64,000 bases of DNA from Minisyncoccia bacterium. Lineage in GTDB: Bacteria > Patescibacteriota > Minisyncoccia > UBA6257 > 2-01-FULL-56-20. The stretch lies in contig JBEKRC010000003.1 in NCBI GenBank assembly GCA_049997875.1, positions 183,885 to 247,884 of the forward strand, in the 5' to 3' direction. Position 1 is the stretch's first letter. The number at the start of each line of letters is the position of its first letter. Below, piece after piece: positions 3,017 through 56,706 of the stretch. The notes under the pieces were generated by a model that was given only the letters and a program-made list of their open reading frames with translations, searched no databases and was not told the DNA's origin. The position numbers and the translations under genes are program-made.

Positions 3017-3661
3017 CTAGCAGTCAGCAGCTATGCCTTCAACAAGAGAGGGTAGCTCCGACAAGGTAACAATTTTGAAATCTTCTCCGAGATTATCTCC
3101 TTTTTCGGCGACCAACACACATTTGATATCGGCGTTGTGAGCAGCTTCAATATCTTCTTTGTAGTCACCAACATAAAGAGCTTTCGTCCTATCCTTAATT
3201 CCCAGGTGGTCCATGGCTTTAATGATTCCTTCGGGATTCGGTTTGTGATTTTTCACGTCTTCTCTGTCCAAGACAACATCAAAATATTTACGAAGATCAA
3301 ACTTCTTAAGAAGCATCGTGGTAGTTGTTCTGCCGCGACTGGTAATGAGCGCGGTCTTGTAATTCTTTTTTATCGCTTCCAGTACCTCGCTCGCGTGAGC
3401 CATTAAGGTAATTTTGGGCGCAAATGCCACAGACATTTTCTTGCTGTATTCGTAGATGGGCAGAACTTCTTCTTCTGACAAAGATGGCAGCAGTTTTTTT
3501 GTAATATCCAAAGTTTTCAAACCTAGAAGCGGCAAGAAATCTTTTTCTTGCGGAATGGGTAACTTAAAGTGTCTGAAGGTTTCCTGAAAATACTCTATCG
3601 TCGGACGGTTGGAGTCTACTATGACGCCGTCGAGATCAAAAAGTATTGCTTCAATAATCAT
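3017..3661 (-). CDS. HAD-superfamily hydrolase (subfamily IA phosphatase-like)
   Basis: N-terminal motif I ILFDLDGVIVDS, motif IV VGDYKEDIEAA. Lower GC than neighbours; embedded in the pur operon. Confidence 0.8.
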   Translation of the reverse strand: MIIEAILFDLDGVIVDSNRPTIEYFQETFRHFKLPIPQEKDFLPLLGLKTLDITKKLLPSLSEEEVLPIYEYSKKMSVAFAPKITLMAHASEVLEAIKKNYKTALITSRGRTTTTMLLKKFDLRKYFDVVLDREDVKNHKPNPEGIIKAMDHLGIKDRTKALYVGDYKEDIEAAHNADIKCVLVAEKGDNLGEDFKIVTLSELPSLVEGIAADC

Positions 3662-3781
3662 TCCTTAAAGTATATAGCTTTTGCGAAGCGGCATGCATGC
3701 GTTTGCCCGCTCTGGCGGCTGGGCAATGTTCAACCTCGGAAGACCCAACCAGAGAGGATAACCTTTTTGCGCCGGCGGCGT

Positions 3782-20170: not shown

Positions 20171-20389
20171 GTGCGGAAAAAGGATGCCATCTATGATGCG
20201 GAGAAGCTCGCCAGGTTTTTTGGCGTTACGAAAAAGACAGTGTGGGACTGGTGCAAGCGCGGCAAGCTTCCCGGTTTCAAGATCGGGAAACAATGGAAAG
20301 TGCGCGTGGCTGATTTACAAAAAATGATTGACCGGAAAATACGGCATCAGAAAGAAAATGCGGCACCAGCAACCCCGAAATTGTTTTAA
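20171..20389 (+). CDS. excisionase/MerR-type helix-turn-helix DNA-binding protein (stand-alone, 72 aa, GTG start)
   Basis: LARFFGVTKKTVWDWCKRGKLPGFKIGKQWKV matches the HTH_17 (Xis-family) pattern. Confidence 0.7.
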   Translation: MRKKDAIYDAEKLARFFGVTKKTVWDWCKRGKLPGFKIGKQWKVRVADLQKMIDRKIRHQKENAAPATPKLF

Positions 20390-30779: not shown

Positions 30780-32645
30780 TTACCAACTGGAAGGAGCGCT
30801 CCGCTGGGCAACGAACGTATTTTGGCCAGTGTAGTTGCCGGCGAGCAGAATCGAACTCGGGACCGAGATGCCCCAATAAGTTGCCCCTAAGGACGACGTT
30901 GCCGTTGATGTTGACTTGGGAATCTGGATGGCGAGCAACGCCCCGGGATTCACGAGCAACGCGGTGCCCGATGCATAGACCACACCGGAGGTGGCGTAGG
31001 TTATCTGCCCGACCGGGATGGTGGACGTCGTGGAAACCGGACAGCTCGGATAGGTAGTACACATCGAAGTGCCGTATAGCGTTTCGTTGAGGCCGAGATT
31101 GCCGAGTTCGGAGAGCGTCGTCGTCTGGGCCAAGGTCGGAGTCGTGGAGCCCGAAGACAGGGACCCGAAATTTATGCTCGGCGTATTGAGCTGCGAAGCA
31201 AGGAAGCTCAACACGGTACTGGTATTGGCGCTCGTGACGACCGTACTCGTCATGCCCACGTAATTCGTTGCCTGGACAGCCGCAGCCCAATTTTGATTGT
31301 AATACTGGGTGCTCGTCGCAGTGCCATCGGTGGGATCCGTGACGTACCAGAGCGGAAAGGTACAAGTCCATTGCGACGTGATTGAACTTGATCCAGCGCA
31401 CGAGCCGCCGTTCTGGGAACAGCTCCAATTCCATGTGGATGTGCCTATGGCCGCCGGATAACAATTGTTGGGATTGTAATTTCCGGATGACGAGCAATTC
31501 CCGAGGCCGATGCCAGAACGGAAAATGTCAATGCTCGCAGTCGCGACCTCTTGCCCGCCCACGGACGTCAAACAGCTGTTGTTGTCGGATGCCGTGAAGG
31601 TCACCTGGAAACCGGTCGTCTGCCCTCCCGGGTTTGTGAGCGAAAGCAGCGTGGTAGAACCGGTCGTGTTCAGCAAATTAATGCTGGACGATGCGATCGT
31701 CGGCGCAACCGCATTCACTGTTTCGGTTGCGTTCGTCCCCTGCGCGCCGCCGGAAGGAGGTACCAGAAACTGGTCAATGATGTAGCCATATGAGGAATAT
31801 CCGTTGTCCTGCGTTGGGATTGAAATGGTGGTCGTGCATGTGGGGTTGAGCGTGATGCCGGAGGTGGGCGAAGAGCAATATGTTCCACCAGGGCCGCAGG
31901 CCGTGCCCGTGAAGTCCGTCGCCTTGCAAACGAAAAGTTGGATGGTGGTAGTGGACCCCGTGAAGGTATCGCTGCTTGAGGCAGTGGCCGTCCACGTCAC
32001 GACGGCTCCCGGATTAGCCGGGGAATTGTTTGAGAACGCAGTGAACCGTGGACGGTGGTCCAAAACGAAAGGAGATGCCGTGTTCCCGCTTCCCTGCTGG
32101 TACGTGTTATTGCATCTCGGATTGAACGCGTTACCGTCGCAGATCCAAGCGAACCAAGCGTTGAACTGCGCGTCGGTTGATGACGGGGTATATGTTGACG
32201 TCGCATTGGTCCCGCTCGGGGTTGAGGTGGAAACCGCCCATTGGTTGCTCGCGCCCCCCCCGCAGGTCGGCGGGGCGCTGGCGTTCGCCGTCGGCGTGCT
32301 GCTTGATTTGCAAATCAAAAGATAGTAATTGTTCCCGTTCGGGCTTGTCCCTACCGCGACCCAGCTGATGGGAATCCCGACCACTGCCGGGCTGCTCGTC
32401 GTGTAGGGAGCAGCCTCCTGGGCGTTCACCGTCCAAAGCGGCGGCGTATTCAAAACCGTCAGGGTTGTCGTCGCGGTGCTCTGTGCCATTGCGAACCTTG
32501 CCGGACGCAAGGAACCAGTTGCCCAGAAGTTCACTGCGAGGATCGCGAAGGCCGTGAGCACGCCGAGCACGAGCACTAAAGCAGCAACCCGCCCGTGCGT
32601 ATCACGAAGGCACTCCTTAAGTTGCCGGGAATTGAAAAATTTCAT
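30780..32645 (-). CDS. giant secreted T/S/N-rich surface protein with conserved C-terminal module (class A)
   Basis: 621 aa with signal/TM at the N-term. The last ~120 aa (..NFGSLSSGSTTPTLA..LGNLGLNETLYGTSM..ATYWGISVP..GNYTGQNTFVAQRSAPSSW) are homologous to the C-terminus of the 36871..39432 product. Confidence 0.5.
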   Translation of the reverse strand: MKFFNSRQLKECLRDTHGRVAALVLVLGVLTAFAILAVNFWATGSLRPARFAMAQSTATTTLTVLNTPPLWTVNAQEAAPYTTSSPAVVGIPISWVAVGTSPNGNNYYLLICKSSSTPTANASAPPTCGGGASNQWAVSTSTPSGTNATSTYTPSSTDAQFNAWFAWICDGNAFNPRCNNTYQQGSGNTASPFVLDHRPRFTAFSNNSPANPGAVVTWTATASSSDTFTGSTTTIQLFVCKATDFTGTACGPGGTYCSSPTSGITLNPTCTTTISIPTQDNGYSSYGYIIDQFLVPPSGGAQGTNATETVNAVAPTIASSSINLLNTTGSTTLLSLTNPGGQTTGFQVTFTASDNNSCLTSVGGQEVATASIDIFRSGIGLGNCSSSGNYNPNNCYPAAIGTSTWNWSCSQNGGSCAGSSSITSQWTCTFPLWYVTDPTDGTATSTQYYNQNWAAAVQATNYVGMTSTVVTSANTSTVLSFLASQLNTPSINFGSLSSGSTTPTLAQTTTLSELGNLGLNETLYGTSMCTTYPSCPVSTTSTIPVGQITYATSGVVYASGTALLVNPGALLAIQIPKSTSTATSSLGATYWGISVPSSILLAGNYTGQNTFVAQRSAPSSW

Positions 32646-32656
32646 AATTTGTAGAG

Positions 32657-32830
32657 TTTTCTTACTACTATTTTAGCAGAAAAGCGTTACTTCAAGGGCG
32701 AAGTTATCCACAGGGAGCTATTTGCATATCCACAGGGGGCTAAGGGCTTTCTTACTACCATTTTAACAGGAAAAGCGTTACTTCAAGGGCGAAGTTATCC
32801 ACAGGGAACTATTTGCATATCCACAGGGAG
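32657..32830. repeat. ~91-bp tandem direct repeat (2 units) in the intergenic promoter region
   Basis: The unit TTTCTTACTAC(T/C)ATTTTA(G/A)CAG(-/G)AAAAGCGTTACTTCAAGGGCGAAGTTATCCACAGGGA(G/A)CTATTTGCATATCCACAGGG is repeated at 32657 and 32748. Confidence 0.85.
32704..32825 (+). promoter_or_regulatory. cluster of four DnaA-box-like sites (2x TTATCCACAGGG, 2x ATATCCACAGGG)
   Basis: Perfect TTATCCACA at 32704 and 32795, ATATCCACA at 32726 and 32817. The pair sits 22 bp apart within each repeat unit, 55-185 bp upstream of the 30780..32645 start codon. Confidence 0.5.
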
Positions 32831-43630: not shown

Positions 43631-45319
43631 TCAACCCGTCCAATGGGAAAGCATAATACTGAGATCGGGGAGATCCACGACGCCATCATGATTCAGATCG
43701 CCGGGCGGCCAGTCTTGTCCCCAGTGAAAAATCAGGACGGAAAAATCCACAAGGTTTACCTTGCCGTCTCCGTTAAAATCCGGATTCCCGGTTTTCGGCA
43801 TCGGTTCTTGCCCCACGCCGAGGTATGTAATGCCCGAAAAATCGCTCACCTGCAGTCCCGGCACAAACGACCGCGCCTTGACCTCGTAGGTATCCACGGC
43901 AAAACCGGTCGTATCCACCGCGTAGGACCAGCGGCCGTCCTCTCCGGCTCCGGCGGTGACCTCCACGGGACTTTTGGCGCCTTGCTGGCTCGTCACCCAA
44001 ATCTCCACGGTGGACGACGGCTCGCTCTCACCCGAGATCGTGACCTTTTTGCCCGGCGCCACCGTGCTTGTCGCGAGCGAAACGCTCGGAGGCATCACGA
44101 GTCCCGTCACGCTGTTCGCCGTTCCGGCGACGATCGTCATCGTGAAGGTTTGCTCCGAGATGCGCTGTCCGTTGCCATCGTTGATGTAGAGCGTGAACGT
44201 GTATACTCCTTGCGCGAGCGAAGGAATATTGACCGTAAAATCTCCGTTCCCGTCCGACGTCGTGCGCTGCGGGACGGCCGTTCCGTCGCGGAGAACCAAT
44301 ATCTCGCTTGACGGCAATGCCACGCCATGGATGACAAGGGAAGGCGACGACGGGCCGGGCGGATACGGCGCCCCGCCCCCGCCCCCAGCGCCTCCGGCAG
44401 TCCCCCCGCTGCTTCCTACTCCCGTCGGACTGCCGGCCGTAAACGAAATCACATAATCGCTCTGGTTCTTATTGCCCGCGAAATCCACGCATCGAACATA
44501 GTAGGTATAGGTGACTCCCTGTGCGATACCGGTCACCGTGAATGTATGGAAGGTTCCCACCGAATTATCCGCAGTAAGATTTGTCATCGCATCATAGCTC
44601 ACGCCCGGTGTCGTCGCATAGCGGCAGAGCGCGTACGTATCCGTATCAAAGGAAGCTACCACTGCCAAAACATTCGATGGGATCGTGCCCGACGGCATCC
44701 CATTCGAGAGCACGGGAGGATTTACCCTGTTGGTATTCACTTCAACCCCCACGGCGGGAAGTATCACGACCATCGCCGCCCCGTAATCGATTGGCGCGCT
44801 CGCCACACTGTAGGTATTGATGAAAATACGGTAGGAAGCCGTCGAGGACGGATTCGTGATCTGATATGTCCCCATGGGAGCGTTTGTGCCCAAAAGGAGG
44901 CGCGCATGGGCGCCCGCCGGGATGCCGTTCCCCGAAGAAAGCGTGATCGCGATGGGTCCGGTAAGGGGCGTAATGGCCACGCCGTCGCTCACTGCATCCG
45001 GTGCTGCCGCGAGCGGCCTTTCCGTAAAGCCGGAGGTCGGCGACGAAGTGGAATAGGCAAGGTCCATGTCGCTGTAACTGAACGAAGGGTCAATCGCGAA
45101 CGGCGTGCCTTCAAAACTTATGACGATCTCCCCCGACGCGGGAACGGCATCCGGAACACTAAAAAGAACGGTGTGGTTCGCCGGGAACGACGGCCTTGAG
45201 TCCGTGATCGTGTCGCTCACGAAACTGAGTTGCGACGCGATCGCGTGTGACGCCACAGCGCCAAAAACGAGCGCCGCGCATACGGGACCAATGGAACACA
45301 ACTGGGATCGGAGCTTCAC
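43631..45319 (-). CDS. secreted FN3-containing protein with C-terminal dockerin-like domain
   Basis: Signal peptide. N-terminal domain similar to that of 46909..48060 (LSFVSDTITDSRPSFPANHTV vs LTAVSDTLSDSRPGWQANHTI). Middle region homologous to 28590..29741. C-terminus DFNGDGKVNLVDFSVLIFHWG...DLNHDGVVDLPDLSIMLSHWTG. Confidence 0.6.
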   Translation of the reverse strand: MKLRSQLCSIGPVCAALVFGAVASHAIASQLSFVSDTITDSRPSFPANHTVLFSVPDAVPASGEIVISFEGTPFAIDPSFSYSDMDLAYSTSSPTSGFTERPLAAAPDAVSDGVAITPLTGPIAITLSSGNGIPAGAHARLLLGTNAPMGTYQITNPSSTASYRIFINTYSVASAPIDYGAAMVVILPAVGVEVNTNRVNPPVLSNGMPSGTIPSNVLAVVASFDTDTYALCRYATTPGVSYDAMTNLTADNSVGTFHTFTVTGIAQGVTYTYYVRCVDFAGNKNQSDYVISFTAGSPTGVGSSGGTAGGAGGGGGAPYPPGPSSPSLVIHGVALPSSEILVLRDGTAVPQRTTSDGNGDFTVNIPSLAQGVYTFTLYINDGNGQRISEQTFTMTIVAGTANSVTGLVMPPSVSLATSTVAPGKKVTISGESEPSSTVEIWVTSQQGAKSPVEVTAGAGEDGRWSYAVDTTGFAVDTYEVKARSFVPGLQVSDFSGITYLGVGQEPMPKTGNPDFNGDGKVNLVDFSVLIFHWGQDWPPGDLNHDGVVDLPDLSIMLSHWTG

Positions 45320-46908: not shown

Positions 46909-48060
46909 CTAGAACACCGGGGTCGCCACATAGATTAGGTTGTTCGTATAGTCGTTCGCTGCTGCCTGCAGGGAACCGATCTCAATGCGCATCGCCACCT
47001 TTGCGGCACCAACGTTCTGCGTCGTGCCGTCCGACGGCCCGGTCCATGCAAAGACCGTTAGGGTGGAGGTCGGATTGAAGCTGCCGGCGTAGAACGGCGT
47101 GCTCGTACCGAAGTTCAACGTGCCGCTTGCATCGTCGCTTGTGATCCCGAAGTGCCCATACGTAAGCGGCTGGTTGATGATGTTCGTGGGCGGGGTCCAG
47201 GGACTCGGAGTGGAGGTGGCGTTGCCGTTGCTGAAGAGGTGGATGGTGTTACCCTTGTTGCTTGTCAGATCCTGGTCCTCGTGGATGGTCACGGCGAAAC
47301 CATTGGAGGCGTTGGTGGTCACGTTCAGCTGCTGGCCGAGCTCATTGTGCGCGCCGGGAGATATCGTGCCGAACGGGAGCGAGGTTGACGCCGACGTGCC
47401 TGTTGTCGTCGCGCCGTTGAGGAGCGCAGTGGTTGTCGAAAGGCTCGACACCGTGAAGGTGAATGTGGTCGCGATCGCGGCGGTCACGTTCACGCCGTTC
47501 ACGATGGCCACGCGCGTGTCAGCCGAGTTCCCTTGGCTCCCGCCGATGCGGATGATGTAGGAACCGGTGCTCGTGGGGTTCGTAATCTTGTTGTTCCCGA
47601 CGATAAACTTCAACGTGCCGGTCGGAACGGTATTGGACGAACAAACCGTGAAGGTGAGCGTGCTCGTCACCGCGCTCGTGAGCTGGATGTTGTTTCCGCT
47701 ACCGGGACAGGACGAGGTGGCAAGCGTAGCCCCCGTAAGCGCAATATCGGTAGAGGTGACGTTCTGCACCCCCAAAAAGGCGTTCGTCGTTGGGTCAAAG
47801 GTAATCTGGATAGTCTGGGTCGCGAGCGTGCTGCTTGGATTCGTATACTGGATCGTATGGTTGGCTTGCCAGCCAGGTCGCGAATCGCTTAGGGTATCGC
47901 TTACGGCGGTAAGGCTTGCTGCGTGGGCCTGTGAAGGGAAAAAGTTCTGGAGTCCGATGGTCCATGCCAAGATGCTTATTAAAAGCCCTGCGGCGATAGC
48001 CACGCCGAGATCCCGTTTTGCATTTTTCAAATACTTGCCTTCAGAAAACATTTGTAACAA
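46909..48060 (-). CDS. secreted T/S-rich surface protein with class-B C-terminal module (WxL-like hypothesis)
   Basis: Signal peptide; C-terminal ~150 aa FGTISPGAHNELGQQLNVTTNASNGFAV...TVFAWTGPSDG...DYTNNLIYVATPVF, shared with 50453..51778. Confidence 0.5.
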   Translation of the reverse strand: MLQMFSEGKYLKNAKRDLGVAIAAGLLISILAWTIGLQNFFPSQAHAASLTAVSDTLSDSRPGWQANHTIQYTNPSSTLATQTIQITFDPTTNAFLGVQNVTSTDIALTGATLATSSCPGSGNNIQLTSAVTSTLTFTVCSSNTVPTGTLKFIVGNNKITNPTSTGSYIIRIGGSQGNSADTRVAIVNGVNVTAAIATTFTFTVSSLSTTTALLNGATTTGTSASTSLPFGTISPGAHNELGQQLNVTTNASNGFAVTIHEDQDLTSNKGNTIHLFSNGNATSTPSPWTPPTNIINQPLTYGHFGITSDDASGTLNFGTSTPFYAGSFNPTSTLTVFAWTGPSDGTTQNVGAAKVAMRIEIGSLQAAANDYTNNLIYVATPVF

Positions 48061-48100: not shown

Positions 48101-48175
48101 TTATCCAGTATAACACAACAAGACATCCACACTTCAATACCCAGTTATCCACAGGCATTCCATTCGCTATCTACA
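48101..48175 (+). promoter_or_regulatory. cluster of DnaA-box-like sites (TTATCCAGT, ACATCCACA, TTATCCACAGG, CTATCTACA)
   Basis: Perfect TTATCCACA at 48145-48153 plus three near-matches, same orientation, immediately upstream of the 46909..48060 promoter (TTGCAA at 48090). Confidence 0.45.
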
Positions 48176-48244: not shown

Positions 48245-49492
48245 TTATCTTACATAATAGAGGGAAATCCACAGGATACCGAGCAAAACCAGTGCGAATA
48301 GAATCACAAAAAAGGCGTATTTTCTGAGAAATCCAAGGTATTTTCGCCAACTGAACCCCACGCCTCCATCTTTCGCATCAGGGTATGCCCTCCGAAGGTC
48401 AACTACCCCTCGGATGGCCGGCTCGCGGAGGATCTGCGAGCTCACGGGCGGCTCAGTTTCCCTTCGCCCGGCGGTTGCAGGACCGTACTTCGCCATCTCA
48501 AGCGCAAGCGCCCGCCGCACATACCTTCGTATGGCAACCACAAAAACCAAAAGGAAAAGGAGCGTCCCCAATGCGACTATAACCATCCGCCAGACGGGCA
48601 GTATCCAAAACGAAATTGTCTGTGAAACGCTCTTGTTCCCGTCCTCGCCGTATGCGAGCGTCGCGACGGCGGTATAAGGACCGATATCGAACCAACTCGT
48701 CTCGCCGCGCCACTCAAAGTCAAACCGGCGCGTGCTTGAGGGAAGCACGTAGCCGAGATTCGTCTGGTTGATCTCTATTTTTCCGCACTCTTTGCCCCAC
48801 GCGTTGTAAATCTCCACCTCGCCCATCGGATGCAAATGGACGTTCCCCGTATTTTGGAACTTGAGCGTGAAAGGAACGTCCGGATTGGCGTACGTCCCCT
48901 GCGATGTGGAAAATTCCGTAATGCTTCCCTCTTCCTTTATGTCTCCGCCCACGCGGACAAAGATGAGCGACGAGATGAAGCTGCCGACACCGATGCGCGA
49001 TCCGGCCATCCCGTTCAACGAAGGTTCCGTACCGATGAGGATCGCGGCATAGTGACCGCCCGGCGAAGCATCTTTGGGAACCGCGACGGAGAATGGAACA
49101 TCAACTGCTCCGTCCGGAGGTATGACGATCGGATCCTTCAAGACCGTGATCCAGTTCGCGAGCGCATCGCTGTCGTTCGCGAGGTCCGCGAGAGCAATGA
49201 ACGTCCCGTGCCCTTCTTCGTCGGAAGCCGCGAATCCCATGACCGACCCGTAGACCGTAAGCTCCCCTGCGTTCGCGTTCACCACCCTGATGGAACTCGC
49301 CCATGAATCTCCGGGATTCACGTTGAGTTCAAAGAACGGCGGCGTGATGGTGAGCGAGAGCGAATCGTTCGCGGCGCGCGAAGCGAACGGGCAGAAGCAC
49401 GCGAGCGCCGTGAGCGACCACGCGACGATCAGCAAAAGATGGCGATTACATGCGGCCATGAATGTCGTAAGGGTGTCGGAGGTCAATGACAT
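48245..49492 (-). CDS. surface protein, DUF916/CscA-like architecture
   Basis: Signal peptide; LSLTITPPFFELNVNPGDSWASSIRVVNANAGELTV; C-terminal TM plus RRYVRRALA tail and an additional C-terminal TM. Confidence 0.5.
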   Translation of the reverse strand: MSLTSDTLTTFMAACNRHLLLIVAWSLTALACFCPFASRAANDSLSLTITPPFFELNVNPGDSWASSIRVVNANAGELTVYGSVMGFAASDEEGHGTFIALADLANDSDALANWITVLKDPIVIPPDGAVDVPFSVAVPKDASPGGHYAAILIGTEPSLNGMAGSRIGVGSFISSLIFVRVGGDIKEEGSITEFSTSQGTYANPDVPFTLKFQNTGNVHLHPMGEVEIYNAWGKECGKIEINQTNLGYVLPSSTRRFDFEWRGETSWFDIGPYTAVATLAYGEDGNKSVSQTISFWILPVWRMVIVALGTLLFLLVFVVAIRRYVRRALALEMAKYGPATAGRRETEPPVSSQILREPAIRGVVDLRRAYPDAKDGGVGFSWRKYLGFLRKYAFFVILFALVLLGILWISLYYVR

Positions 49493-50453
49493 GGCGATGC
49501 GCGAGAATGCGGTTCAGGATGCTCATGCGCCGATGATGCCGCTTCTCGTATTGCCGGTGGATCCATGCCGCAAGCACGATTACGGCCGCAAGCAGTCCCA
49601 CGAAAACGACCGTGAGCTTTTGCCACGGGAGCACCCACACGAGCGCCACGTTTTGGAGCTTGTTCCCGGCGGCACCGTACGTGAGATCGAGCATCGCCTT
49701 ATACTGGCCGAAACCCTGCCCGCTTCCCCATTGAGCCGTGAAATTATGCGTTTCCCCGGGAGCAATCGCCACGTGCTCCGGATTCGCATCAACGGAGCCG
49801 ATCTCGCGGCCAAGCCGATCATAGAAGAGAACGAGGCCCGACGGCGTCGAGGCCACGTCCCCCGTGTTCTCGATCGCGTAGGCGAAGCTCACCGGAAACG
49901 CGGAGACGACCCGGCCCGTGGGCGCAAAGCTCGCGAGCGCAAGTTCCTCCTTCACGTTGGACTGCACCGTGAGGTCCACGAGCGCCTGGGGCGCACCATC
50001 AAGGTGCGTCTCCGCCTCGTCGCGCGTGGAACCTTCTACGAAAGCGATGACCGCATGGTACGTGCCGGCCGCGGCGTACGGATTGATGTTGATGGAAACC
50101 GGTATGGTCTTTGTCTCGCCCGGAGCGAGGGGCATCGCCCCGCGCGAGACGCTTATCCAATTTGCGAGCGAAACGGATTTTTCCGCAAGCGAGGAATCCA
50201 CGAGCGAAGGGTCCTCAAAGGCCTGCTTGCCATCCGCCGTCAGGTTGTACACGGACACAAAAACGTTTGCAAGGTGATCGTCGGTGTTTTTAGCGGTGAG
50301 CGTGTAGTTCAAAATGTCCCTCGGCAGGCCGTGGTCGTCAATCACGGCGGGAGTGACAACAAGGCCGGCAGCACGGACGAGCGCTGGAAACCAAAGAAGA
50401 CAAATCGCGCCCAAGCCCGCATAAAATATTTTCTTGTAAAAAAATTCGTTCAT
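49446..50453 (-). CDS. surface protein, DUF916/CscA-like architecture
   Basis: Signal peptide; LVVTPAVIDDHGLPRDILNYTLTAKNTDDHL; C-terminal TM VVFVGLLAAVIVLAAWIHRQYEKRHHRRM. Confidence 0.5.
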   Translation of the reverse strand: MNEFFYKKIFYAGLGAICLLWFPALVRAAGLVVTPAVIDDHGLPRDILNYTLTAKNTDDHLANVFVSVYNLTADGKQAFEDPSLVDSSLAEKSVSLANWISVSRGAMPLAPGETKTIPVSININPYAAAGTYHAVIAFVEGSTRDEAETHLDGAPQALVDLTVQSNVKEELALASFAPTGRVVSAFPVSFAYAIENTGDVASTPSGLVLFYDRLGREIGSVDANPEHVAIAPGETHNFTAQWGSGQGFGQYKAMLDLTYGAAGNKLQNVALVWVLPWQKLTVVFVGLLAAVIVLAAWIHRQYEKRHHRRMSILNRILAHRHVIDLRHPYDIHGRM

Positions 50454-51778
50454 TAGAATGTGGGAGCGACGACGTATGCGGTGTTATCGCTGTAGGAACC
50501 GGTGAGCTGCATGGGATTCGTCTGAACGCGATACACCATGTCCATCGTGCTGCCTGTTGTTGGCGCGCCGCTGTATCCTATCTCGGCGGTTGTCGTGGTA
50601 AATCCGGCGTAGGTGTCATCCGCTGCGAAACGCGTGGACCCGCTCGAGAGCACGGCGCTTCCGGCATGATATCCGTAGCACGCCGTGGAAGTGGAAGTGC
50701 ACGCGGTCCCCCACGCCTGCGGACTCGCGTTCGTGGCATTCAGGGCCGGCACCTTATCACCCTGCGCATCCGTGAGCGGCGCATCTTGGAACGCATAGAG
50801 TTCATACCCGAACGCGGCATTCGTCGTCACCGAAAGCCGCTGCGCACCCGTAAGACTCGAACCGACCGGCAAAGTTCCGAAGGGAATACCGGTGGGTGTC
50901 GCGGAAACGTTTGTTACGATGCCGTTCGTACTCGTCCCTTGGGGAAGACCGCTCACCGTGAACGTAAGCGCCGCTCCCTGTGTCACGAGGCTCGGATACG
51001 ACGACGTTCCGTTCAGGAGGACCGGCATCCCGTCCGCGGCGTTCACCGCGCGGAAAAAGTACGTGGTCCCGACAACGGCGCCCGAGTTCTGCATCGTGAA
51101 CTCGTACTCAGTTGCGGCGCCTGCCGCTTGGGTGGCGGTGGAAGTACTTGTACCCGATGTGTTGTGGGTACCGCAGCCGTTCCCAACGCCGCCACTGCAA
51201 GAATCCGAATCGGTCAGAATATTGGTCGAAATCAGCGTATTATCGGCACCCGCGCCCGAGGCATAACACCAACTTGACGTCGCGACGCAACTCCCGATCT
51301 CCGTCACATATCCTACCCCCGAGGAAAAATCCGACGCGAGCGAATATTGGAGCCGGAACTTCACGTTATCGCTTCCCGCAAGACTGCTTGTTTCCTTGAT
51401 CGTGAGCCGCAGCTTCAGCGGTTCCCCGTTCGCGATGTTCGTGGGCGCCGTGCTTTGGGCGGCGAGCGAGCTTGTCGGCGTCTCGTCATTCACGTCGCCG
51501 TACCATTCCCACGCCTGCGACATTGGGGAGAATTCCGTGTCGTTCGCCGGACCCGTGTTGGACATGAATCCCGTGCCCGCCGCGTCGCCGTTCGTGATGG
51601 CGGAGCCGCCCTGGACCATCTGGAAGTCCGTGGATGACGAATACCCTCCGAAGGAACCTAGGTAGGAATCCTCTATCATGAAATGCGTGCTCGAGACCGT
51701 ATCGGCGGCGGACCAGAACGGCAGCACCGAAATGGCGACGAGGATCACTATGGTAAACACCGCGAATGCGCGCTCCAT
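50453..51778 (-). CDS. secreted T/S-rich surface protein with class-B C-terminal module
   Basis: Signal peptide; C-terminus FGTLPVGSSLTGAQRLSVTTNAAFGYEL...SPQAWG...YSDNTAYVVAPTF is homologous to the 46909..48060 C-terminus. Confidence 0.5.
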   Translation of the reverse strand: MERAFAVFTIVILVAISVLPFWSAADTVSSTHFMIEDSYLGSFGGYSSSTDFQMVQGGSAITNGDAAGTGFMSNTGPANDTEFSPMSQAWEWYGDVNDETPTSSLAAQSTAPTNIANGEPLKLRLTIKETSSLAGSDNVKFRLQYSLASDFSSGVGYVTEIGSCVATSSWCYASGAGADNTLISTNILTDSDSCSGGVGNGCGTHNTSGTSTSTATQAAGAATEYEFTMQNSGAVVGTTYFFRAVNAADGMPVLLNGTSSYPSLVTQGAALTFTVSGLPQGTSTNGIVTNVSATPTGIPFGTLPVGSSLTGAQRLSVTTNAAFGYELYAFQDAPLTDAQGDKVPALNATNASPQAWGTACTSTSTACYGYHAGSAVLSSGSTRFAADDTYAGFTTTTAEIGYSGAPTTGSTMDMVYRVQTNPMQLTGSYSDNTAYVVAPTF

Positions 51779-51779
51779 G

Positions 51780-52286
51780 TTATTGGCTTGTCTGTGACTG
51801 CTCGATCGTCTTCACGATGACGCTGTCGCTCCGCAGGGTCTCCCAAAACATTATCTGCGAGAGCGGAACCACCATCTCGCTCGTAGGTCCATGGATCTCG
51901 TTCCCGAGCTTCACAAGCTTGAGCTGCGACTGGTCCTCGCCGTTCAACTGTTCACTCGGCTGCGCAATCTGAAGATAGTACACGTCGCGCAACGTGATCG
52001 TTGCGGCGAAGGGCCAATGCTGGAAATGCCCGAAGTAGACCTGATTGTTCGTGAGGAACACCGCACGCCATGCCGTGTCGTGGGCGGTGGCATACCATGC
52101 GCCGAGCGCAATGACGAGCGCGATAATTGCAATGACGACGACCGTGTTTCTCTTGTTCCATCGCGATTTCAGGCGCGGTTCGGAAACAACGTTCTCGTTT
52201 TCTTCCCGAAGATTGAGGGTGCTAGGCATAAAATTTGATGATAAAAATTTACGGCGACCTTTACGGCGCGGTGCCGGCTGCGGCAT
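51780..52286 (-). CDS. small single-TM membrane protein (hypothetical)
   Basis: 168 aa; basic N-terminus, one TM (VVVIAIIALVIALGAWY), extracytoplasmic C-terminal domain. Confidence 0.4.
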   Translation of the reverse strand: MPQPAPRRKGRRKFLSSNFMPSTLNLREENENVVSEPRLKSRWNKRNTVVVIAIIALVIALGAWYATAHDTAWRAVFLTNNQVYFGHFQHWPFAATITLRDVYYLQIAQPSEQLNGEDQSQLKLVKLGNEIHGPTSEMVVPLSQIMFWETLRSDSVIVKTIEQSQTSQ

Positions 52287-53553
52287 CGGACGAAGTAGCG
52301 CCGGGTGAGACCGCGTCGGGCGTGGGCGTAACGGACGCCGCGGAAGTGCTGCCTGGAGTGTCGCTTGTGGACGAGGCGCCCGCGTTCACGCTCGCATCCG
52401 CACCCGTGTCCGTTCCCGCATTCATGTTCGCACCGGTGTTTGCATCCGTACTCGTGCCCGTGTCGGCGCTCGCGCTCGCACTGGTATTTGCGCCCGCACC
52501 GACACTGCTCGTCGCAACGCTTCCGATGTCCGCGCTGTCCGTTGTGCTCGTGGTCGTGTCGGAGACAGTCGCATCAGAGGTGGTCGCATCATTCGATGCG
52601 CCCACAGTGTCCGTATCTCCATCGCCTGCCGCCGCATTGCCGGCCGCCGCAGCACTCATTGTGGTAACGTCCGGCGTCCCGCCCCCGAACGCGACCGGCA
52701 TCGATTGCTCCACAACGGTCGACGACCCAGCGGCATAAGTGCTGATGATAAGCCACGAGAAAGACACGGGGATGGATTGTGACCGGACCGTACCGACATG
52801 GAAGCCCGCGCCGTCGCTCCTCTGCGTCACCGCAAGCGGGACTTCGGTGGGCGAAGTAGGCGTTACGATAACCTCCGAAGAAGAAGTGAGGAGGGTGTTA
52901 GGTACGAAAACATCTGTCACTCCGGCGCCGATCTCTCCATCTCCCGACATCTGATTCGCCCCTTTCGGCACGGCAATTGAGCCGCCGGGAAGCACCGCGA
53001 ACATCTTTGAGAAAATCTGCATGGCTGCCACGACGGACGTCTTCACTGCGTCCACGGCCGAGGTCACGATCCCGAAGAACTGCTGCAGCACCGAATCAAG
53101 CCAAGAGTCGTCGCTCGGCGGGGCGGCGGCGAGGGAAGAAGTGTCCATGGTGACCGTAACGTCAGTCAATGGGATAGGCGTAGAGAAGACAACCGTCGCG
53201 GAGGCCGTCGATGGGGATGTTATGGCTGCTGTCGCGCTCCCCGGCACCGTCCCGCCATCCACGGCGTCGACGACGAACGTCCCTCCCATCCGATCGCCCG
53301 CGGGCACCGTGATAGCGTATGCGTAAGAACCGTTCACACAGCTCGGATTGCTGCTTCCCCAAATGGAACCGTCGGACGTGCGGCGGATAACAACGAGCAC
53401 GAACCGCGCGGAGCAATTCCCGGAAACGGAGAGTTTCCCCGTTCCGGGATCAAAGACGACGTTGCTGCTCGCCGCGCGCGCCGCGCTCCCCCACGCAAGC
53501 AAGGCGAGGGAGATAACGCCGACGAAACTTACAAAAAAATATCTTTTGTTCAT
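52261..53553 (-). CDS. secreted low-complexity T/S/A/D-rich protein (hypothetical)
   Basis: Signal peptide; extreme compositional bias in the C-terminal half. Confidence 0.4.
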   Translation of the reverse strand: MNKRYFFVSFVGVISLALLAWGSAARAASSNVVFDPGTGKLSVSGNCSARFVLVVIRRTSDGSIWGSSNPSCVNGSYAYAITVPAGDRMGGTFVVDAVDGGTVPGSATAAITSPSTASATVVFSTPIPLTDVTVTMDTSSLAAAPPSDDSWLDSVLQQFFGIVTSAVDAVKTSVVAAMQIFSKMFAVLPGGSIAVPKGANQMSGDGEIGAGVTDVFVPNTLLTSSSEVIVTPTSPTEVPLAVTQRSDGAGFHVGTVRSQSIPVSFSWLIISTYAAGSSTVVEQSMPVAFGGGTPDVTTMSAAAAGNAAAGDGDTDTVGASNDATTSDATVSDTTTSTTDSADIGSVATSSVGAGANTSASASADTGTSTDANTGANMNAGTDTGADASVNAGASSTSDTPGSTSAASVTPTPDAVSPGATSSDAAAGTAP

Positions 53554-53558
53554 GGTCG

Positions 53559-55916
53559 TTAATCGTGGCTGCTAAAATAGACGTACGCGATCCTGTGAAC
53601 GGCGGCGGTCCCCGTAAGCGTGGTAACCGCATCCGTGATGCCGAGCTGCGTTGCCCCCGTTGCGATGTTCGTCGTCTTCGGCGTAGTTACATAGCTCCCC
53701 CCGTTCGTCGCAACCTGGCACAACATCTGCCCGGCCGTCGACATATCAAGAATGATGTCGTAGTAGGTGCTTGTCGTAACCGTCACACCGGTATTCGTAT
53801 AGCTTGCGGTCGTCCCGTCCCCTGAACCGCACTGCCAAGTCGTATCTCCCGCGCTGGTGGAATAGCGAAGACCAAAGAATACCGTTGACGTCGCGCCGGC
53901 AGCGACATCAGATCCCGTAATCGCAGCCGAGTTCAGCGCGACCCAGATGCGCCGGCTCGTAATGGTGGTATCGGTCCTGATCCTTGTCGCGAACCGCGGC
54001 GTATAGCGCGGTTGGGTCTGATTGAATGTCTGCGTCAATCCCCCTACGGAACCGTTCGATGCGGCGCTTGTCCATTGCACATAATAATCCTCCGCCTGCG
54101 CACTGGCCGCAGCGGTGCCGTTCACGGTAGGAATCCCCATATCAACCGCGGTGAACACCGTGGCCGCCGTACCGGTCGGCGCCCAATATCCCCACTGATT
54201 GGTACCGAAGTCCTGTTGCCACCCTATAGGGGTCGGGATGCAGTTCGTCCAGGCACCCCCTTGGTAACAACGGAAGCTTCCCGTGCTTGAGCTGTAATAC
54301 ATCGCGCCGTTGAAGCCGGTCGGGTCCCCGGCATCGGATTTCACGTCAAGCCCCAAAAGCGTCGGGACAGATCCGGCCGCCCCGTTCCGCCCGATCTTTA
54401 TCTTGTTGTTCAGCGTATCGGCGGCAAGAAGCGTTATCGTCCCGCTCGCATTCTGCAAAGCAAACGTGGTGGACGTATCGCTGGAGGGAAGAAAAACCGC
54501 ATTCCCGACGCTGTTAACATAGAAAACCGTGGATGACGCATCGTTCACTTGAATGGCGTTCCCGGAGCCAAAGTTACTCACGATCAATGCGGCCCCCGAG
54601 ACGTTCGCACCCGCAGTGATCGCGACCGTGCTCGTCGCCTGCGTTGAGGTCGGGGCGTTCACGATGGAAAGCGCTATGCCGGTTCCGTTCTGGCTCAATG
54701 TTAATCCCGTTGAAGCCGCATTTTGCACGATAGACATCCCCGCGGTCACGGACGGCGCGTTCAGCGTTTTATTGTTCAATGTCTGCGAGTAGTTCACGAG
54801 CGCCACCGTGTCCGTTGCCGTGGCGAAGTTCGGGATCGTGAGCGCCCCGACGACCGTCGGGTTCCAACTCAACGTCCCGGTCGCGCCCGTTCCCTGGAAG
54901 ACAAATTGGCTGGAGGTCGCCGTGGCCTGCAACATGCTCGCCGTCACGCGGTTTGCGATCGTGAGTATGCCGGACGAGGCGATCGTATTGCTCGCGGAGA
55001 AGAACTGTATTGCGCCCGTGCCCGTCCCGCCCTGCAGCGTAAGCGTGTTCGTTCCGGTCGCATTGATCTGCGGGTTCGCATCGCCGAGGACGAGGGCCCC
55101 CGAGGCGAGCACCGGTATCTCCGTGCCCGTCGCATTCTGCGACGGCGCGAATCCTCCCACCGTCGCCGCGTTGATGGCATACCCGGACGCCACGATCCGC
55201 TCGCGCGGGCTCAAGGCCTCAAACGTCGCGTTCGTGCAGCTTGAACTCACTTGCGCCGCCACTTCCACGTTCAGATACGCCGTGTCGTTGCTCTGAAAAT
55301 TGAAGGTCAACGGATCCCCTCCCGCGCTTACGTCACCCACGCCGACATCAAAGACGCCGTTCGCCACGGTAGCGGTCATCGCGGAGGCGGTGGTGCTCGG
55401 CCAGAGCTTGGTGCCCCCCGAAAGAGAATCATAAATGGAGAAACGGAAGCAGTATGGCGTACCCGATCCCCCCAAAAGATTGCCATTGGAGTCAAAAAGC
55501 CTGCCTTGATAGCTCAGGACGAGAGGTACCCCCGTGGCCGCCTTAGCAATCGCGATGGTGATAAAGGCGTATATGAGGAACGCAATAAAAAGGAAAAGGA
55601 GTACTACAAGGACATAAATGATCCTTCTCGCAAGGCGCAATATCGCCTCGGTTGATGAGTTAGCAACCCACCAGGTTCGAAGCTTTTCCCGCACCCATTC
55701 CTTAAAGGCAGGGATTGCGCGTTCCGCCCCGCTTTTCGCCATATATTCCCGAATGGCCTCCTCGGTCGTCACCCAAGCCACATTCAGGTAGATCTGTTTG
55801 CCCTGCAATTTCCCCTTCCGGATAAGCTGACCCAAATAATCCGGCGCATAGCCCGAAAGCTTCGCCGCTTCCTTAAGAGTGATATATTTAACCCCTTTGT
55901 CGTGTCTTATAGCCAT
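53559..55916 (-). CDS. 785-aa protein: N-terminal excisionase-type HTH, single TM, large extracellular T/S/N/G-rich beta-repeat domain
   Basis: VKYITLKEAAKLSGYAPDYLGQLIRKGKLQGKQI (HTH_17-like, same type as the 20171 protein). TM IIYVLVVLLFLFIAFLIYAFITIAIA. ~640 aa of G/T/S/N-rich repeats (TGTNTLTLQGGTGTGAIQF...). Confidence 0.55.
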   Translation of the reverse strand: MAIRHDKGVKYITLKEAAKLSGYAPDYLGQLIRKGKLQGKQIYLNVAWVTTEEAIREYMAKSGAERAIPAFKEWVREKLRTWWVANSSTEAILRLARRIIYVLVVLLFLFIAFLIYAFITIAIAKAATGVPLVLSYQGRLFDSNGNLLGGSGTPYCFRFSIYDSLSGGTKLWPSTTASAMTATVANGVFDVGVGDVSAGGDPLTFNFQSNDTAYLNVEVAAQVSSSCTNATFEALSPRERIVASGYAINAATVGGFAPSQNATGTEIPVLASGALVLGDANPQINATGTNTLTLQGGTGTGAIQFFSASNTIASSGILTIANRVTASMLQATATSSQFVFQGTGATGTLSWNPTVVGALTIPNFATATDTVALVNYSQTLNNKTLNAPSVTAGMSIVQNAASTGLTLSQNGTGIALSIVNAPTSTQATSTVAITAGANVSGAALIVSNFGSGNAIQVNDASSTVFYVNSVGNAVFLPSSDTSTTFALQNASGTITLLAADTLNNKIKIGRNGAAGSVPTLLGLDVKSDAGDPTGFNGAMYYSSSTGSFRCYQGGAWTNCIPTPIGWQQDFGTNQWGYWAPTGTAATVFTAVDMGIPTVNGTAAASAQAEDYYVQWTSAASNGSVGGLTQTFNQTQPRYTPRFATRIRTDTTITSRRIWVALNSAAITGSDVAAGATSTVFFGLRYSTSAGDTTWQCGSGDGTTASYTNTGVTVTTSTYYDIILDMSTAGQMLCQVATNGGSYVTTPKTTNIATGATQLGITDAVTTLTGTAAVHRIAYVYFSSHD

Positions 55917-55954
55917 CTCGAGGGTCGATATTTAACAAATCTTGGGTATCGAGA

Positions 55955-55983
55955 TTATATACTCATTATATAAAACCTTGCAA
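55955..55983 (-). promoter_or_regulatory. sigma70-like promoter for 53559..55916 (TTGCAA-16nt-TATAAT on the minus strand)
   Basis: Reverse complement reads TTGCAAGGTTTTATATAATGAGTATAATCTC. Confidence 0.5.
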
Positions 55984-56041
55984 TCAGGATATGTGCATAA
56001 AATGTGAAGAACGTTATAAAATATGCCCAAAATAAGGACAA

Positions 56042-56102
56042 TTTATCCACATATATTGGCTTATCCACATATCCACATCCACTAATTTTTCCTCTCATCC
56101 AC
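56042..56102 (+). promoter_or_regulatory. cluster of DnaA-box-like sites in a divergent promoter region (2x TTATCCACA, ATATCCACA, TCATCCACG), adjacent AT-rich stretch
   Basis: TTATCCACA at 56042 and 56060, ATATCCACA at 56068, TCATCCACG at 56094. Located 60-120 bp upstream of the minus-strand promoter and ~100 bp upstream of the plus-strand promoter. Confidence 0.5.
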
Positions 56103-56168: not shown

Positions 56169-56198
56169 TTGCAATATTCAGCAATACCATGGTATAAT
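56169..56198 (+). promoter_or_regulatory. strong sigma70-like promoter (TTGCAA-18nt-TATAAT) for the RRM gene
   Basis: TTGCAA at 56169-56174, TATAAT at 56193-56198. Confidence 0.6.
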
Positions 56199-56235
56199 AC
56201 AAACGTTGTAAGTGTTCTTAGTAGGTTTCGCCTGT

Positions 56236-56301
56236 CCAGTCGTAGTTTTGCACGTGATGCCGTGCGTGAATATCAAGCATGATGAGCAAAACTACGGCTG
56301 G
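56236..56301 (+). promoter_or_regulatory. long hairpin in the 5' leader of the RRM gene (16-bp stem with one G-U, 34-nt loop)
   Basis: CCAGTCGTAGTTTTGC at 56236-56251 pairs with GCAAAACTACGGCTGG at 56286-56301. Confidence 0.6.
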
Positions 56302-56400
56302 AGAGCAAGCAGAGGAGAAGTAGGTCGCCTTACACAAAAATAGCAAAACAGAGAATCCGGCACCAAATTGTTTTCGCGAGAAGGCGCTGGGTTGTATTTA

Positions 56401-56706
56401 ATGGCTACAAAATTATACGTTGGGGGTTTGCCCTACACCACGACGCAGGATGAGCTTCAGGCTGCGTTCGCGCAGGCCGGCACCGTTTCGTCCACAACCA
56501 TCATTGTGGACAAGATGACGGGCCGCTCGCGCGGGTTCGGTTTCGTCGAAATGGCATCCGACGAGGACGCCCAGAAGGCGATCGAGATGTGGAACGGCAA
56601 GGACTTCGGCGGCCGCAAGTTGACCGTGAACGAAGCCAAGCCCCTTGAGCAGCGCGCTCCTCGGAGCGGCGGCGGCGGCTACGGCGGCGGACGCCAGAGC
56701 TGGTAG
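56401..56706 (+). CDS. RRM-domain glycine-rich RNA-binding protein
   Basis: RNP-2 LYVGGL and RNP-1 RGFGFVEM; C-terminal GGGGYGGGRQ tail. Start at MATKLYVGGL; the ORF-track start at 56368 is less likely. Confidence 0.85.
   Translation: MATKLYVGGLPYTTTQDELQAAFAQAGTVSSTTIIVDKMTGRSRGFGFVEMASDEDAQKAIEMWNGKDFGGRKLTVNEAKPLEQRAPRSGGGGYGGGRQSW

Follow-up and report, generated by a model that had tools for sequence, protein, structure and literature searches.

A predicted membrane-tethered MerR/Xis-type helix-turn-helix module fused to a tail-fibre-like adhesin in a Minisyncoccia bacterium

Anatomy of the reading frame at 53559..55916

The DNA analysed here, called the window below, is a 64,000-nucleotide (nt) stretch (contig JBEKRC010000003.1, positions 183,885 to 247,884) of a Minisyncoccia bacterium; Minisyncoccia is a class within the phylum Minisyncoccota, the Patescibacteria or candidate phyla radiation (CPR) of the older literature. 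On its minus strand, at 53559..55916, lies an intact open reading frame (ORF) of 785 amino acids (aa), open throughout, whose product is identical to the NCBI entry 'hypothetical protein ABSE18_03580 [Minisyncoccia bacterium]'. The ORF joins a helix-turn-helix (HTH) domain, a linker, a transmembrane (TM) helix, an AxA motif and a fibre in one frame, and it has six fused orthologues.

Residues 11-64 (55725..55886, minus strand) make up a predicted cytoplasmic winged HTH of the HTH_17 kind, similar to the domains of MerR, Xis and BldC, as judged from Pfam matches in relatives, a structure model and fold comparison. A Pfam scan of the ORF at E ≤ 1 returned HTH_17 (PF12728) alone, with no match to Trans_reg_C, the OmpR/PhoB-type HTH. 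The match of the window protein (E 0.023, 15.4 bits against a cut-off of 27) covers residues 11-61 and profile positions 1-49 of 51, and residues 1-130 taken alone reach 18.5 bits (E 0.0025), still under the gathering threshold of 27 bits. HTH_17 is matched at E ≤ 0.01 by 92 of 96 aligned relatives (best E 1.3e-7), about 25 relatives carry a precomputed PF12728 match, and the assignment is solid at the family level. The AlphaFold (AF2) model of residues 1-130, with a mean predicted local distance difference test score (pLDDT) of 83.6, has a strand-helix-helix-hairpin-helix order followed by a juxtamembrane helix and a long TM helix; the HTH elements (strand 11-13, helices 14-21 and 25-33, strands 39-42 and 47-51, helix 52-64; pLDDT 85-94) form an HTH with a beta-hairpin wing. 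Foldseek comparison with the PDB gave as best neighbours DNA-bound BldC (TM-score 0.79-0.82, root-mean-square deviation 1.5 Å), SoxR, HiNmlR, RacA, TraN and mycobacteriophage Xis, and the model and its neighbours support a winged helix of MerR/Xis type. A PDB sequence search with the HTH-TM profile returned only TM-helix artefacts (G-protein-coupled receptors). Sixteen positions are invariant over the 96 relatives (L14, A17, G22, Y23, D26, Y27, G29, Q30, L31, I32, R33, G35, G39, A47, W48 and T50), and the basic residues R33, K34, K36 and K40 are conserved in helix 2 and the wing, which, together with the conserved candidate sites in the gene's own leader described below, is indirect evidence that this domain may bind DNA.

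An earlier note on this DNA had proposed such a MerR/Xis-type HTH at the N-terminus, and the relatives, the model and the fold neighbours bear it out. The note had also taken a 72-aa protein encoded at 20171..20389 for the same HTH type; this protein is a canonical HTH_17 member (E 4.5e-14), but BLASTP detects no similarity between it and the window HTH and the hidden Markov model of the subfamily misses it as well, so that the two share the Pfam family and nothing closer.

Between the HTH and the membrane, residues 65-97 (55626..55724, minus strand) form a basic juxtamembrane linker with a helix at 71-85, delimited from the model and from hydropathy and charge. The only hydrophobic segment follows: the 19-residue Kyte-Doolittle maximum is 3.1 at residues 99-121, the next best value anywhere being 1.43, and the single TM helix, residues ~98-124 (55545..55625, minus strand), is modelled at pLDDT 92-99 and traceable in the junction alignment. 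Topology was called by rule, from Kyte-Doolittle hydropathy and charge balance. As residues 1-97 carry 18 K+R against 10 D+E and RR directly precedes the helix, the N-terminus is predicted to lie inside, and in a protein that has no N-terminal signal peptide the HTH is thereby predicted to be cytoplasmic. The single TM helix with N-in/C-out orientation of ToxR and CadC, whose topology the earlier note had recognised in this protein, is thus also predicted by these rules; an HTH outside the cell or a region lacking a DNA-binding fold, which the note had named as outcomes that its reading could not survive, is predicted by neither topology nor model. At the end of the helix, residues 124-126 (A-K-A; 55539..55547, minus strand) appear from the junction alignment to be a retained signal-peptide c-region, with a putative signal peptidase I site between A126 and A127.

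The ectodomain comprises 659 aa, of which G, T, S, N and A make up 55.5%, and can be divided into base, shaft and tip. The base domain, residues 127-255 (55152..55538, minus strand), starts with ATGVPLVLSYQGRL, has columns conserved among relatives and is confidently modelled as a beta-sandwich (pLDDT >90); its likeness to the N-domain of the Bdellovibrio MAT (mosaic adhesive trimer) fibres is distant, with 19.6 bits (E 6e-4) to NCBIfam NF053851 Bdello_MAT_N for the window protein and 15.7-32.1 bits (best E 9e-8) for its relatives, under the 60-bit cut-off. The shaft, residues ~256-585 (54162..55151, minus strand), is rich in G, T, S, N and A and has low confidence in the monomer model. The tip, residues ~586-785 (53562..54161, minus strand), is a predicted concanavalin A (ConA)-like lectin/glucanase jelly roll of SO2946 type: these C-terminal ~200 residues are modelled with confidence (pLDDT ~90) and match the folds of 2a5z (E 1.6e-6), SO2946, legume lectins, ConA-like glucanases and alginate lyases. 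Searched as a whole against BFVD, the ectodomain matches phage tail-fibre-type proteins down to E 1.5e-12, under names such as 'phage tail repeat like', 'major tropism determinant N-terminal domain' and 'SO2946-like C-terminal domain', as well as ConA-like proteins. A PDB sequence search with the ectodomain gave no match, and Pfam and NCBIfam scans of the ORF and its neighbours yielded the sub-threshold HTH_17 and Bdello_MAT_N matches only. A diversity-generating retroelement was considered and rejected, as 47-60 kb holds no repeats of template/variable-repeat type and the tip is ConA-like rather than a C-type lectin.

Homologues of the fibre are numerous in Patescibacteria and carry the motif A(T/V)G(V/A)PxI(L/I)x(Y/H)QGRL directly after a signal-peptide-like N-terminus ending in AxA. 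These relatives show the MAT layout of signal peptide, ~130-aa beta-rich domain, fibre and variable tip, the tip being the S74 intramolecular chaperone (PF13884) or another domain; in the window protein the HTH-TM module stands in place of the signal peptide. The shafts of MAT fibres are trimeric and their tips are of S74 or non-S74 kind, and no anchor of their base domain to the cell surface has been identified (PMC10769870). From the models and fold matches we conclude that the ectodomain is a tail-fibre/MAT-like adhesin with a conserved base, a shaft and a lectin-fold tip rather than a sensor domain, in keeping with the adhesin-like or tail-fibre-like character first ascribed to it; it is probably trimeric.

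Split genes, fused genes and the junction

The fusion seen in the window, which the earlier note had thought worth looking for in related genomes, does recur, but in few of them, and what it joins are usually two distinct neighbouring genes. Of the 120 best-scoring fibre homologues only seven (P0001-P0006 and the distant P0106) have an HTH in front, and the remaining 113 (~94%) either open with a normal signal peptide or are truncated. The fused orthologues (P0002-P0006 and L006) show 61-71% identity. Residues 1-126, used alone as the query, retrieve 204 proteins, nearly all of 102-210 aa and ending just past the TM helix. Small HTH-TM proteins of this kind come from contigs that agree in length, pair by pair, with the contigs of fibres of the signal-peptide type (P0122 with P0007, P0123 with P0011, P0134 with P0008, P0138 with P0009, P0144 with P0010, P0158 with P0012, P0182 with P0013, P0207 with P0014 and P0227 with P0042, the last pair having adjacent locus tags). 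In the locus L001, independent gene calls give a 141-aa gene (2208-2633) that overlaps a 685-aa fibre gene (2623-4680) by 11 nt, and after the fibre gene come homologues of the window genes for 430, 168, 441 and 335 aa in the same order.

A profile scan with one genome per species yielded 80 loci, all in metagenome-assembled genomes of Patescibacteria type (the few other labels are probably mis-binned), of which L001-L064 were taken as a close subfamily and the others as more distant. Contig ends make six loci of the close subfamily not evaluable. In 34 of the 58 others the gene after the HTH-TM gene encodes a fibre, or the two are fused (L006); in 23 it encodes a different large protein, which has a TM or signal segment at its N-terminus, and in one (L063) the module is fused to a 1,039-aa protein.

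Compared with L001, the window lacks about 100 nt, a stretch that in L001 holds the tail and stop codon of the first gene together with the signal-peptide start, n-region and h-region of the fibre. From this comparison and the prevalence of split forms, the window ORF is a derived in-frame fusion of two normally separate neighbouring genes that head the same operon, and its TM helix derives from the C-terminal anchor of the formerly separate HTH-TM protein. In a neighbour-joining tree of ectodomains the seven closely related fused forms (P0001-P0006 and L006) group together, nested among split forms, with 27% support; a single fusion event is likely but not proven.

At the junction, (A/V)-x-A immediately ahead of A(T/S/V)G(V/I)P is preserved in all seven of these fused forms, with variable flanking residues. 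The small residues of the AxA rule at -3 and -1 are provided by A-K-A/A in the window and by VHA, AHA, VQA, VHA, AHA and AHA in the other six, and P or G is present at -4 to -6 in four of the seven. Six of them retain the TM helix of the small protein through 'LYAxxxNxF', followed by 5-6 variable residues, (A/V)-x-A and the start of the mature fibre; the window has the shortest junction, with ...LIYAFITIAIAKA directly before ATGVP. Because AxA has been kept across 30-40% sequence divergence while its neighbours vary, we infer that signal peptidase I would still cut there. The dimensions of the hydrophobic part speak against such processing. Typical signal-peptide h-regions have about 7-15 residues; the span of ~26 aa in the window is long for a cleavable signal, and the other fused forms combine a span of ~21 residues with an AxA ~11 residues past the helix, which is the limit for a signal peptidase I c-region. 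Cleavage is uncertain for these reasons, and for the window fusion we give cutting at A126/A127 about an even chance.

The HTH-TM module extends well beyond the fibre loci. Its profile, searched over 1.84 billion cluster representatives, returns 4,397 proteins at E ≤ 1e-3; of these, 833 remain at a cut-off of 1e-10 and 170 at 1e-30. In split operons the stand-alone protein has 122-195 aa; the TM helix starts near residue 90 in 209 of 217 small members, and the outside tail has a median of 18 residues (range 0-46), too little for a sensor. The extracytoplasmic sensor domain that ToxR and CadC possess is thus lacking, the tail being 0-46 aa and the ectodomain being separately secreted in 113 of the 120 homologues. 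About 30 of 139 newly returned representatives (P0250-P0378) are proteins of 457-4,161 aa with two tandem HTH copies, one TM helix at ~150-220 and a huge ectodomain that opens with a conserved 'FYP...GxWxNPxNxxGxPxV...FSExNSAxY' region; they form a second, larger class of HTH-anchored surface proteins, and similar giants with a single HTH occur as well (L066-L079). Since HTH-TM units are found repeatedly ahead of, or fused to, large exported proteins, they represent a recurrent theme in the phylum of which the window ORF is one instance.

Two further arrangements were encountered. The closest relative of the window HTH and linker, P0141 (197 aa), is 73% identical up to 'TWWVANSS', after which a dockerin-repeat domain follows and a TM helix is absent, as if the gene had been rearranged or were a chimera. 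On a Doudnabacteria contig (L085, 2823-3011) a gene for a canonical 62-aa MerR/HTH_17 protein, with no TM helix and outside the HTH-TM subfamily, overlaps and precedes a fibre gene, so that small HTH genes and fibre genes have been paired a second time, independently.

Leader elements and the surface locus

The ORF is preceded by a sigma-70-type promoter, TTGCAA-18 nt-TATAAT (55954..55983, minus strand), with 10 of 12 consensus matches. Leader palindrome 1, ATCTCGATACCCAAGAT (55939..55955, minus strand), has a degenerate 3' arm and overlaps the last 2 nt of the -10 hexamer; a homologous element is found in 63 of the 64 close-subfamily loci. Palindrome 2, ATATCGACCCTCGAGAT (55915..55931, minus strand), overlaps the ATG and lies 24 nt from palindrome 1, in the 24-25 nt spacing class that is also seen in L001-L006. 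On the far side of the promoter a gene-sense DnaA-box-like 9-mer, TTATGCACA (55992..56000, minus strand), lies 8 nt upstream of the -35 hexamer as the counterpart of the gene-sense box of relatives, and three more 9-mers (56043..56077, plus strand), antisense to the gene and 60-95 nt upstream of the -35, read TTATCCACA at 56043 and 56061 and ATATCCACA at 56069. The DnaA-box-like cluster that the earlier note had placed beside this promoter is therefore real, with four boxes at 55992-56077.

The whole window contains 23 matches to the DnaA-box-like 9-mer with at most one mismatch, against 7.7 expected. Allowing the same mismatch, 72 of 81 loci have a TTATCCACA/TTGTCCACA box in the 300 bp preceding the HTH gene, a region in which box density is 3.86 per kb compared with 0.20 per kb in the rest of the loci; in relatives the box mostly has the gene's own orientation and keeps one of two constant distances, 21 or 28 nt, ahead of TATAAT. 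An origin of replication (oriC) was rejected as an explanation of the cluster, for boxes occur at three separate surface-operon promoters of the window and are promoter-linked in 72 of the 81 related loci. One of the other two promoters lies in a 91-bp tandem duplication (1.9 copies, 95% identical) at 32658-32828, upstream of a gene for a 621-aa exported protein (30780..32645, minus strand); each copy has two DnaA-box-like 9-mers 22 bp apart followed by TTGAAG-17-TAAAAT, giving four boxes in 32704-32825, so that the box-plus-promoter unit was duplicated as a whole. At the other, a perfect TTATCCACA (48145-48153), antisense, lies directly upstream of the TTGAAG -35-like hexamer of a gene for a 383-aa exported protein (46909..48060, minus strand), and both an HTH gene and a palindrome are missing from this promoter, the third in the surface locus to carry boxes.

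The palindrome, ATCTCG-N5-CGAGAT, is present in one or two copies between the -10 hexamer and the start codon of nearly all HTH-TM genes of the close subfamily. Of 131 relaxed matches in 650 kb of loci, 108 are located from -220 to +20 relative to the HTH start, and at least one is present in 63 of the 64 close-subfamily loci. The N5 core has the consensus A-C/T-C/A-C/A-T/C and can face either way (70 cores are C-rich and 35 G-rich, and 12 loci contain both kinds), and paired copies are spaced by 24-25, 31-32 or 34-35 nt, a combination that fits symmetric operators read on DNA. Around the start codon the DNA itself is conserved between the window (55914-55945) and L001 (2190-2230), as ctcgrtacccaagatt and aatatcgaccctcgagat, with a shifted start codon: the second palindrome is translated in L001 (MNIDPRD) and ends in the ATG in the window. 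An invertible promoter, as in phase variation, is not supported, both palindromes being downstream of the -10 in most loci rather than flanking the promoter. Rfam searches of the leader region gave only sub-threshold miRNA-like matches, and these fall on an unrelated ~75-nt near-perfect hairpin (56229-56306) between a divergent promoter (56169-56198, plus strand) and a gene for an RRM-type RNA-binding protein (56368-56706, plus strand).

Leader elements and HTH subfamilies vary together in part. In the close subfamily the wing reads GKQxYxNxAWxTT and the palindrome is always present, whereas in the distant subfamily the wing reads xRxxGRxWxV and the palindrome is absent; the helix GYxPDYxGQL is common to both, and the box is found in most members of both. 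This pattern fits a link between the HTH and the palindrome or box sites but is confounded by phylogeny. When metagenomes were scanned for the double palindrome independently of any protein, 53 of 80 loci (within L086-L165) proved to be unrelated elements resembling repetitive extragenic palindromes (REP-like), six lay next to an HTH gene and three were arrays with no HTH gene, so that the scan neither proves nor disproves palindrome specificity. The REP-like elements, GTAGCC/GTACTC-ATCTCGCTCCGCGAGAT with N5 = CTCCG/CGGAG, are abundant in intergenic DNA of GC-rich metagenome contigs and match the same pattern, yet are unrelated to the Patescibacteria leader. The three arrays (L091, 120-390; L113, 3100-3350; L092, 1680-1827; GC 0.39-0.47) consist of about ten ATCTCGGACCCCGAGAT / ATGTCGGGGTCCGAGAT units with 'ataat' spacers; those of L091 and L113 are bounded by long inverted repeats on contigs with no HTH ORF, L092 has TTATCCACA just ahead of its array, and all three may be origin- or partition-like arrays of an extrachromosomal element.

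Downstream of the fused ORF the operon continues with genes for proteins of 430, 168, 441 and 335 aa (49446..53553, minus strand; p430, p168, p441 and p335), all with a signal peptide or TM segment. The first of them starts 6 nt after the fibre stop codon, with no terminator-like site between the two. The order HTH-TM, fibre, p430, p168, p441, p335 is also found in L001, L004 and L006 and partly in L002. Pfam, NCBIfam and PHROGs gave no match for p430 or p441, nor did a PDB sequence search for p441. The operon belongs to a run of minus-strand genes for exported or anchored proteins at ~29.7-55.9 kb that includes two paralogous families, p441/p383/562-aa and p335/p415/p365/343-aa, the latter with weak WxLIP_PGBD and Fn3-like matches and C-terminal TM anchors. 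A prophage or tailocin origin of the locus is not supported, PHROG matches being absent. The 562-aa exported protein (43631-45319, minus strand) ends in dockerin-like repeats (DxNGDGKVNLxDFSxL), and genes for dockerin- and cohesin-domain proteins lie downstream of a related fibre in L082 (7650-10089); such domains hint at cohesin-dockerin assembly of the surface apparatus. A 625-aa protein (39482-41359, minus strand) has a predicted cytoplasmic, basic N-terminus of ~85 aa and one TM helix (87-116), which is the architecture of the ~600-aa proteins that follow HTH-TM genes in fibre-less loci (L011-L013, L017, L019 and others).

Proposed coupling, competing readings and known systems

We propose, with moderate confidence in the picture as a whole, that the window ORF is a derived fusion in which a membrane-tethered, probably autoregulatory DNA binder is coupled to fibre production. 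In the conserved surface-fibre operon of Paceibacteria/Minisyncoccia, gene 1 as a rule encodes a tail-anchored protein with a cytoplasmic winged HTH, a basic linker, a TM helix and a very short outside tail, and gene 2 a secreted tail-fibre/MAT-like adhesin with a cleavable signal peptide, a ~130-aa base, a shaft and a swappable tip, here ConA-like. A deletion of ~100 nt in this lineage would have fused the two, and the TM helix of gene 1 would now serve as the export signal of the fibre. Signal peptidase I would then separate the parts, leaving one HTH-TM unit in the membrane for each fibre exported, a fixed 1:1 ratio of what split operons make as two products. The HTH would bind DNA in the operon's own leader, with the two palindromes and/or the TTATCCACA-type box as candidate sites, and a membrane-tethered autoregulator could thereby couple transcription of the fibre operon to the amount of product, with DnaA possibly a second input at the box. 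That the HTH binds one or the other leader element has, in our estimate, a somewhat better than even chance. The earlier suggestion that the ORF directly regulates itself or the surface locus is plausible, given the conserved candidate regulatory sites at its promoter.

Several observations weigh against this picture. A single fusion event has a bootstrap value of only 27%, and the window protein itself falls below the Pfam threshold for HTH_17. TTATCCACA and TTGTCCACA are exactly the classical DnaA-box variants, and the box is also found at promoters with no HTH gene (at 32.7 and 48.1 kb of the window, and ahead of the fibre gene of L082, which has no HTH neighbour), so it may belong to DnaA and not to the HTH; as its binder DnaA is at least as good a candidate, and we lean slightly towards DnaA. 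The palindromes, whose 3' arm lies 3-7 nt before the ATG, where the ribosome-binding site is expected, could be RNA hairpins masking that region. In the protein-independent scan most double palindromes belonged to the unrelated REP-like elements. Finally, the putative recognition residues are identical in all HTH paralogues, for which gene-specific regulation is thereby impossible.

The points on the box, on the 3' arm of the palindrome and on the shared recognition residues are also what a quite unlikely reading, in which the HTH does not bind DNA at all, draws upon. The domain would then be a cytoplasmic protein-interaction or export-assisting module, comparable to RodZ, that positions, anchors or escorts very large exported proteins, while DnaA acts at the box and the palindromes act as RNA hairpins; the fact that the module always stands ahead of, or fused to, large exported proteins of unrelated kinds agrees with this. 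The best structural matches, however, are all DNA-bound domains (MerR, BldC, RacA, TraN and Xis), R33, K34, K36 and K40 are conserved, palindrome presence tracks the HTH subfamily, and a conserved arm sequence with both N5 orientations fits DNA recognition better than a mere RNA stem. It has also been considered that the fusion is only apparent, either through an assembly or frameshift artefact or because translation starts internally at a TTG codon (L93), which has GAGG 5 nt before it and would give a canonical signal peptide, MRLARR...AKA. This has a very small probability in our view: the same fused frame occurs in seven independent sequences at 61-71% identity, which excludes an assembly error, L006 has no start-like codon or Shine-Dalgarno sequence at the equivalent place, M or L at this position is typical of stand-alone HTH-TM proteins too, and the full-length frame is open throughout.

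A different kind of alternative accepts DNA binding and denies cleavage. The protein would be an uncleaved ToxR/CadC-like bitopic one-component contact sensor, with the fibre as the sensor, fused here or docked to the short tail in split systems, and contact of the fibre tip with a host surface would be relayed through the TM helix to the HTH to change transcription of the surface locus. The topology (N-in HTH, one TM helix, ectodomain) and the conserved promoter sites suit this idea; the logic of gene fusion implies that HTH-TM protein and fibre interact, and the anchor of the MAT base domain has yet to be identified (PMC10769870). The HTH module is, moreover, repeatedly fused to different large ectodomains (the ~30 of 139 two-HTH giants and L063-L079), and as the giants have no obvious AxA, uncleaved HTH-TM anchors of surface proteins do exist. 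On the other hand, ~94% of the fibre homologues are secreted in the ordinary way, by means of a cleavable signal peptide, stand-alone HTH-TM proteins expose only 0-46 residues, the AxA kept in all seven fused forms suggests separation, and the HTH is of MerR/Xis and not OmpR type. Large exported proteins of unrelated kinds are likewise encoded behind HTH-TM genes, and the fibre base is therefore no specific partner of the module. We regard this sensor reading as unlikely. Its broader form, an unrecognised class of contact-sensing one-component systems in Patescibacteria, in which tethered HTH domains fused to or docked under fibres or giants relay host contact to promoters with box and palindrome, is a speculative idea to which we assign a low probability; such an HTH might even compete with DnaA and so couple host attachment to surface-gene expression and replication.

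Returning to the tethered autoregulator with a processed fibre, its interest lies in the biology of the phylum. Patescibacteria contribute much of bacterial diversity, live bound to host cells and have few recognisable regulators; to our knowledge their choice of hosts and the control of their surface are largely unexplained. The window would exemplify a conserved and abundant cassette, in which a tethered protein of DNA-binding type stands ahead of, or fused to, tail-fibre-like adhesins and giant surface proteins under a stereotyped leader, and the fusion suggests that surface fibres and gene control are widely linked in these bacteria, which depend on hosts. Our search of the literature on Patescibacteria and CPR found no description of the HTH-TM/fibre architecture, and a tail-anchored HTH_17 protein that heads or is fused to fibre and giant-surface-protein genes, with a box-plus-palindrome leader, appears to be undescribed. 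A 60-residue domain, a 17-bp palindrome, a 9-bp box and a putative processing site provide handles for studying the regulation and anchoring of the fibres.

Among known systems, ToxR, CadC and TcpP share the N-terminal cytoplasmic winged helix, the single TM helix, the extracytoplasmic C-terminus and the position of the regulator gene next to its would-be targets. Their HTH, however, is of OmpR/PhoB type (Trans_reg_C) and here of MerR/Xis type (HTH_17), and in place of their compact periplasmic sensor there is normally a tail of ~18 aa, the fused ectodomain being a structural fibre that is usually secreted separately. The ToxR/CadC-like one-component regulator envisaged in the earlier note thus holds for topology but not for the HTH class or for the enormous sensor domain, which is better described as a fibre. 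BldC, RacA and the excisionases resemble residues 11-64 in fold (TM-score ~0.8 to BldC) and are small domains that bind repeated sites, but none has a TM helix, and BldC and Xis bind direct repeats; RacA likewise tethers DNA to a membrane-associated site, although it reaches the membrane indirectly via DivIVA. RodZ, with an Xre-type HTH, a TM helix and a periplasmic domain, is also bitopic with an N-terminal cytoplasmic HTH, which binds a protein (MreB) and not DNA; its HTH is of another class and it is not encoded with surface fibres, no link to MreB is known here, and the window protein has no Pfam or NCBIfam match to an Xre-type HTH or a C-terminal RodZ domain. The extended signal peptide (ESPR) of autotransporters and large exoproteins is comparable as an N-terminal extension ahead of the hydrophobic core and AxA of a very large fibre-like export; it is an unstructured motif of ~25 aa, whereas the segment here has ~97 residues and includes a folded HTH domain, which is found as a protein of its own as well.

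The closest parallel on the fibre side is offered by the Bdellovibrio MAT proteins and phage tail fibres (PMC10769870), which have the same signal peptide, ~130-aa beta-rich base, shaft and interchangeable tip (S74 or other in the relatives studied here). They differ in that the similarity to Bdello_MAT_N is far under the cut-off (19.6 bits, and 32 for the best relative, against 60), that none has been reported with an upstream or fused HTH-TM module, and that the envelope of a Patescibacterium is different. In both cases a tip that resembles glycan-binding domains is found in an organism that lives on other cells, and with the loci described here the idea of MAT/tail-fibre adhesins would reach beyond Bdellovibrio to ultra-small epibiotic bacteria.

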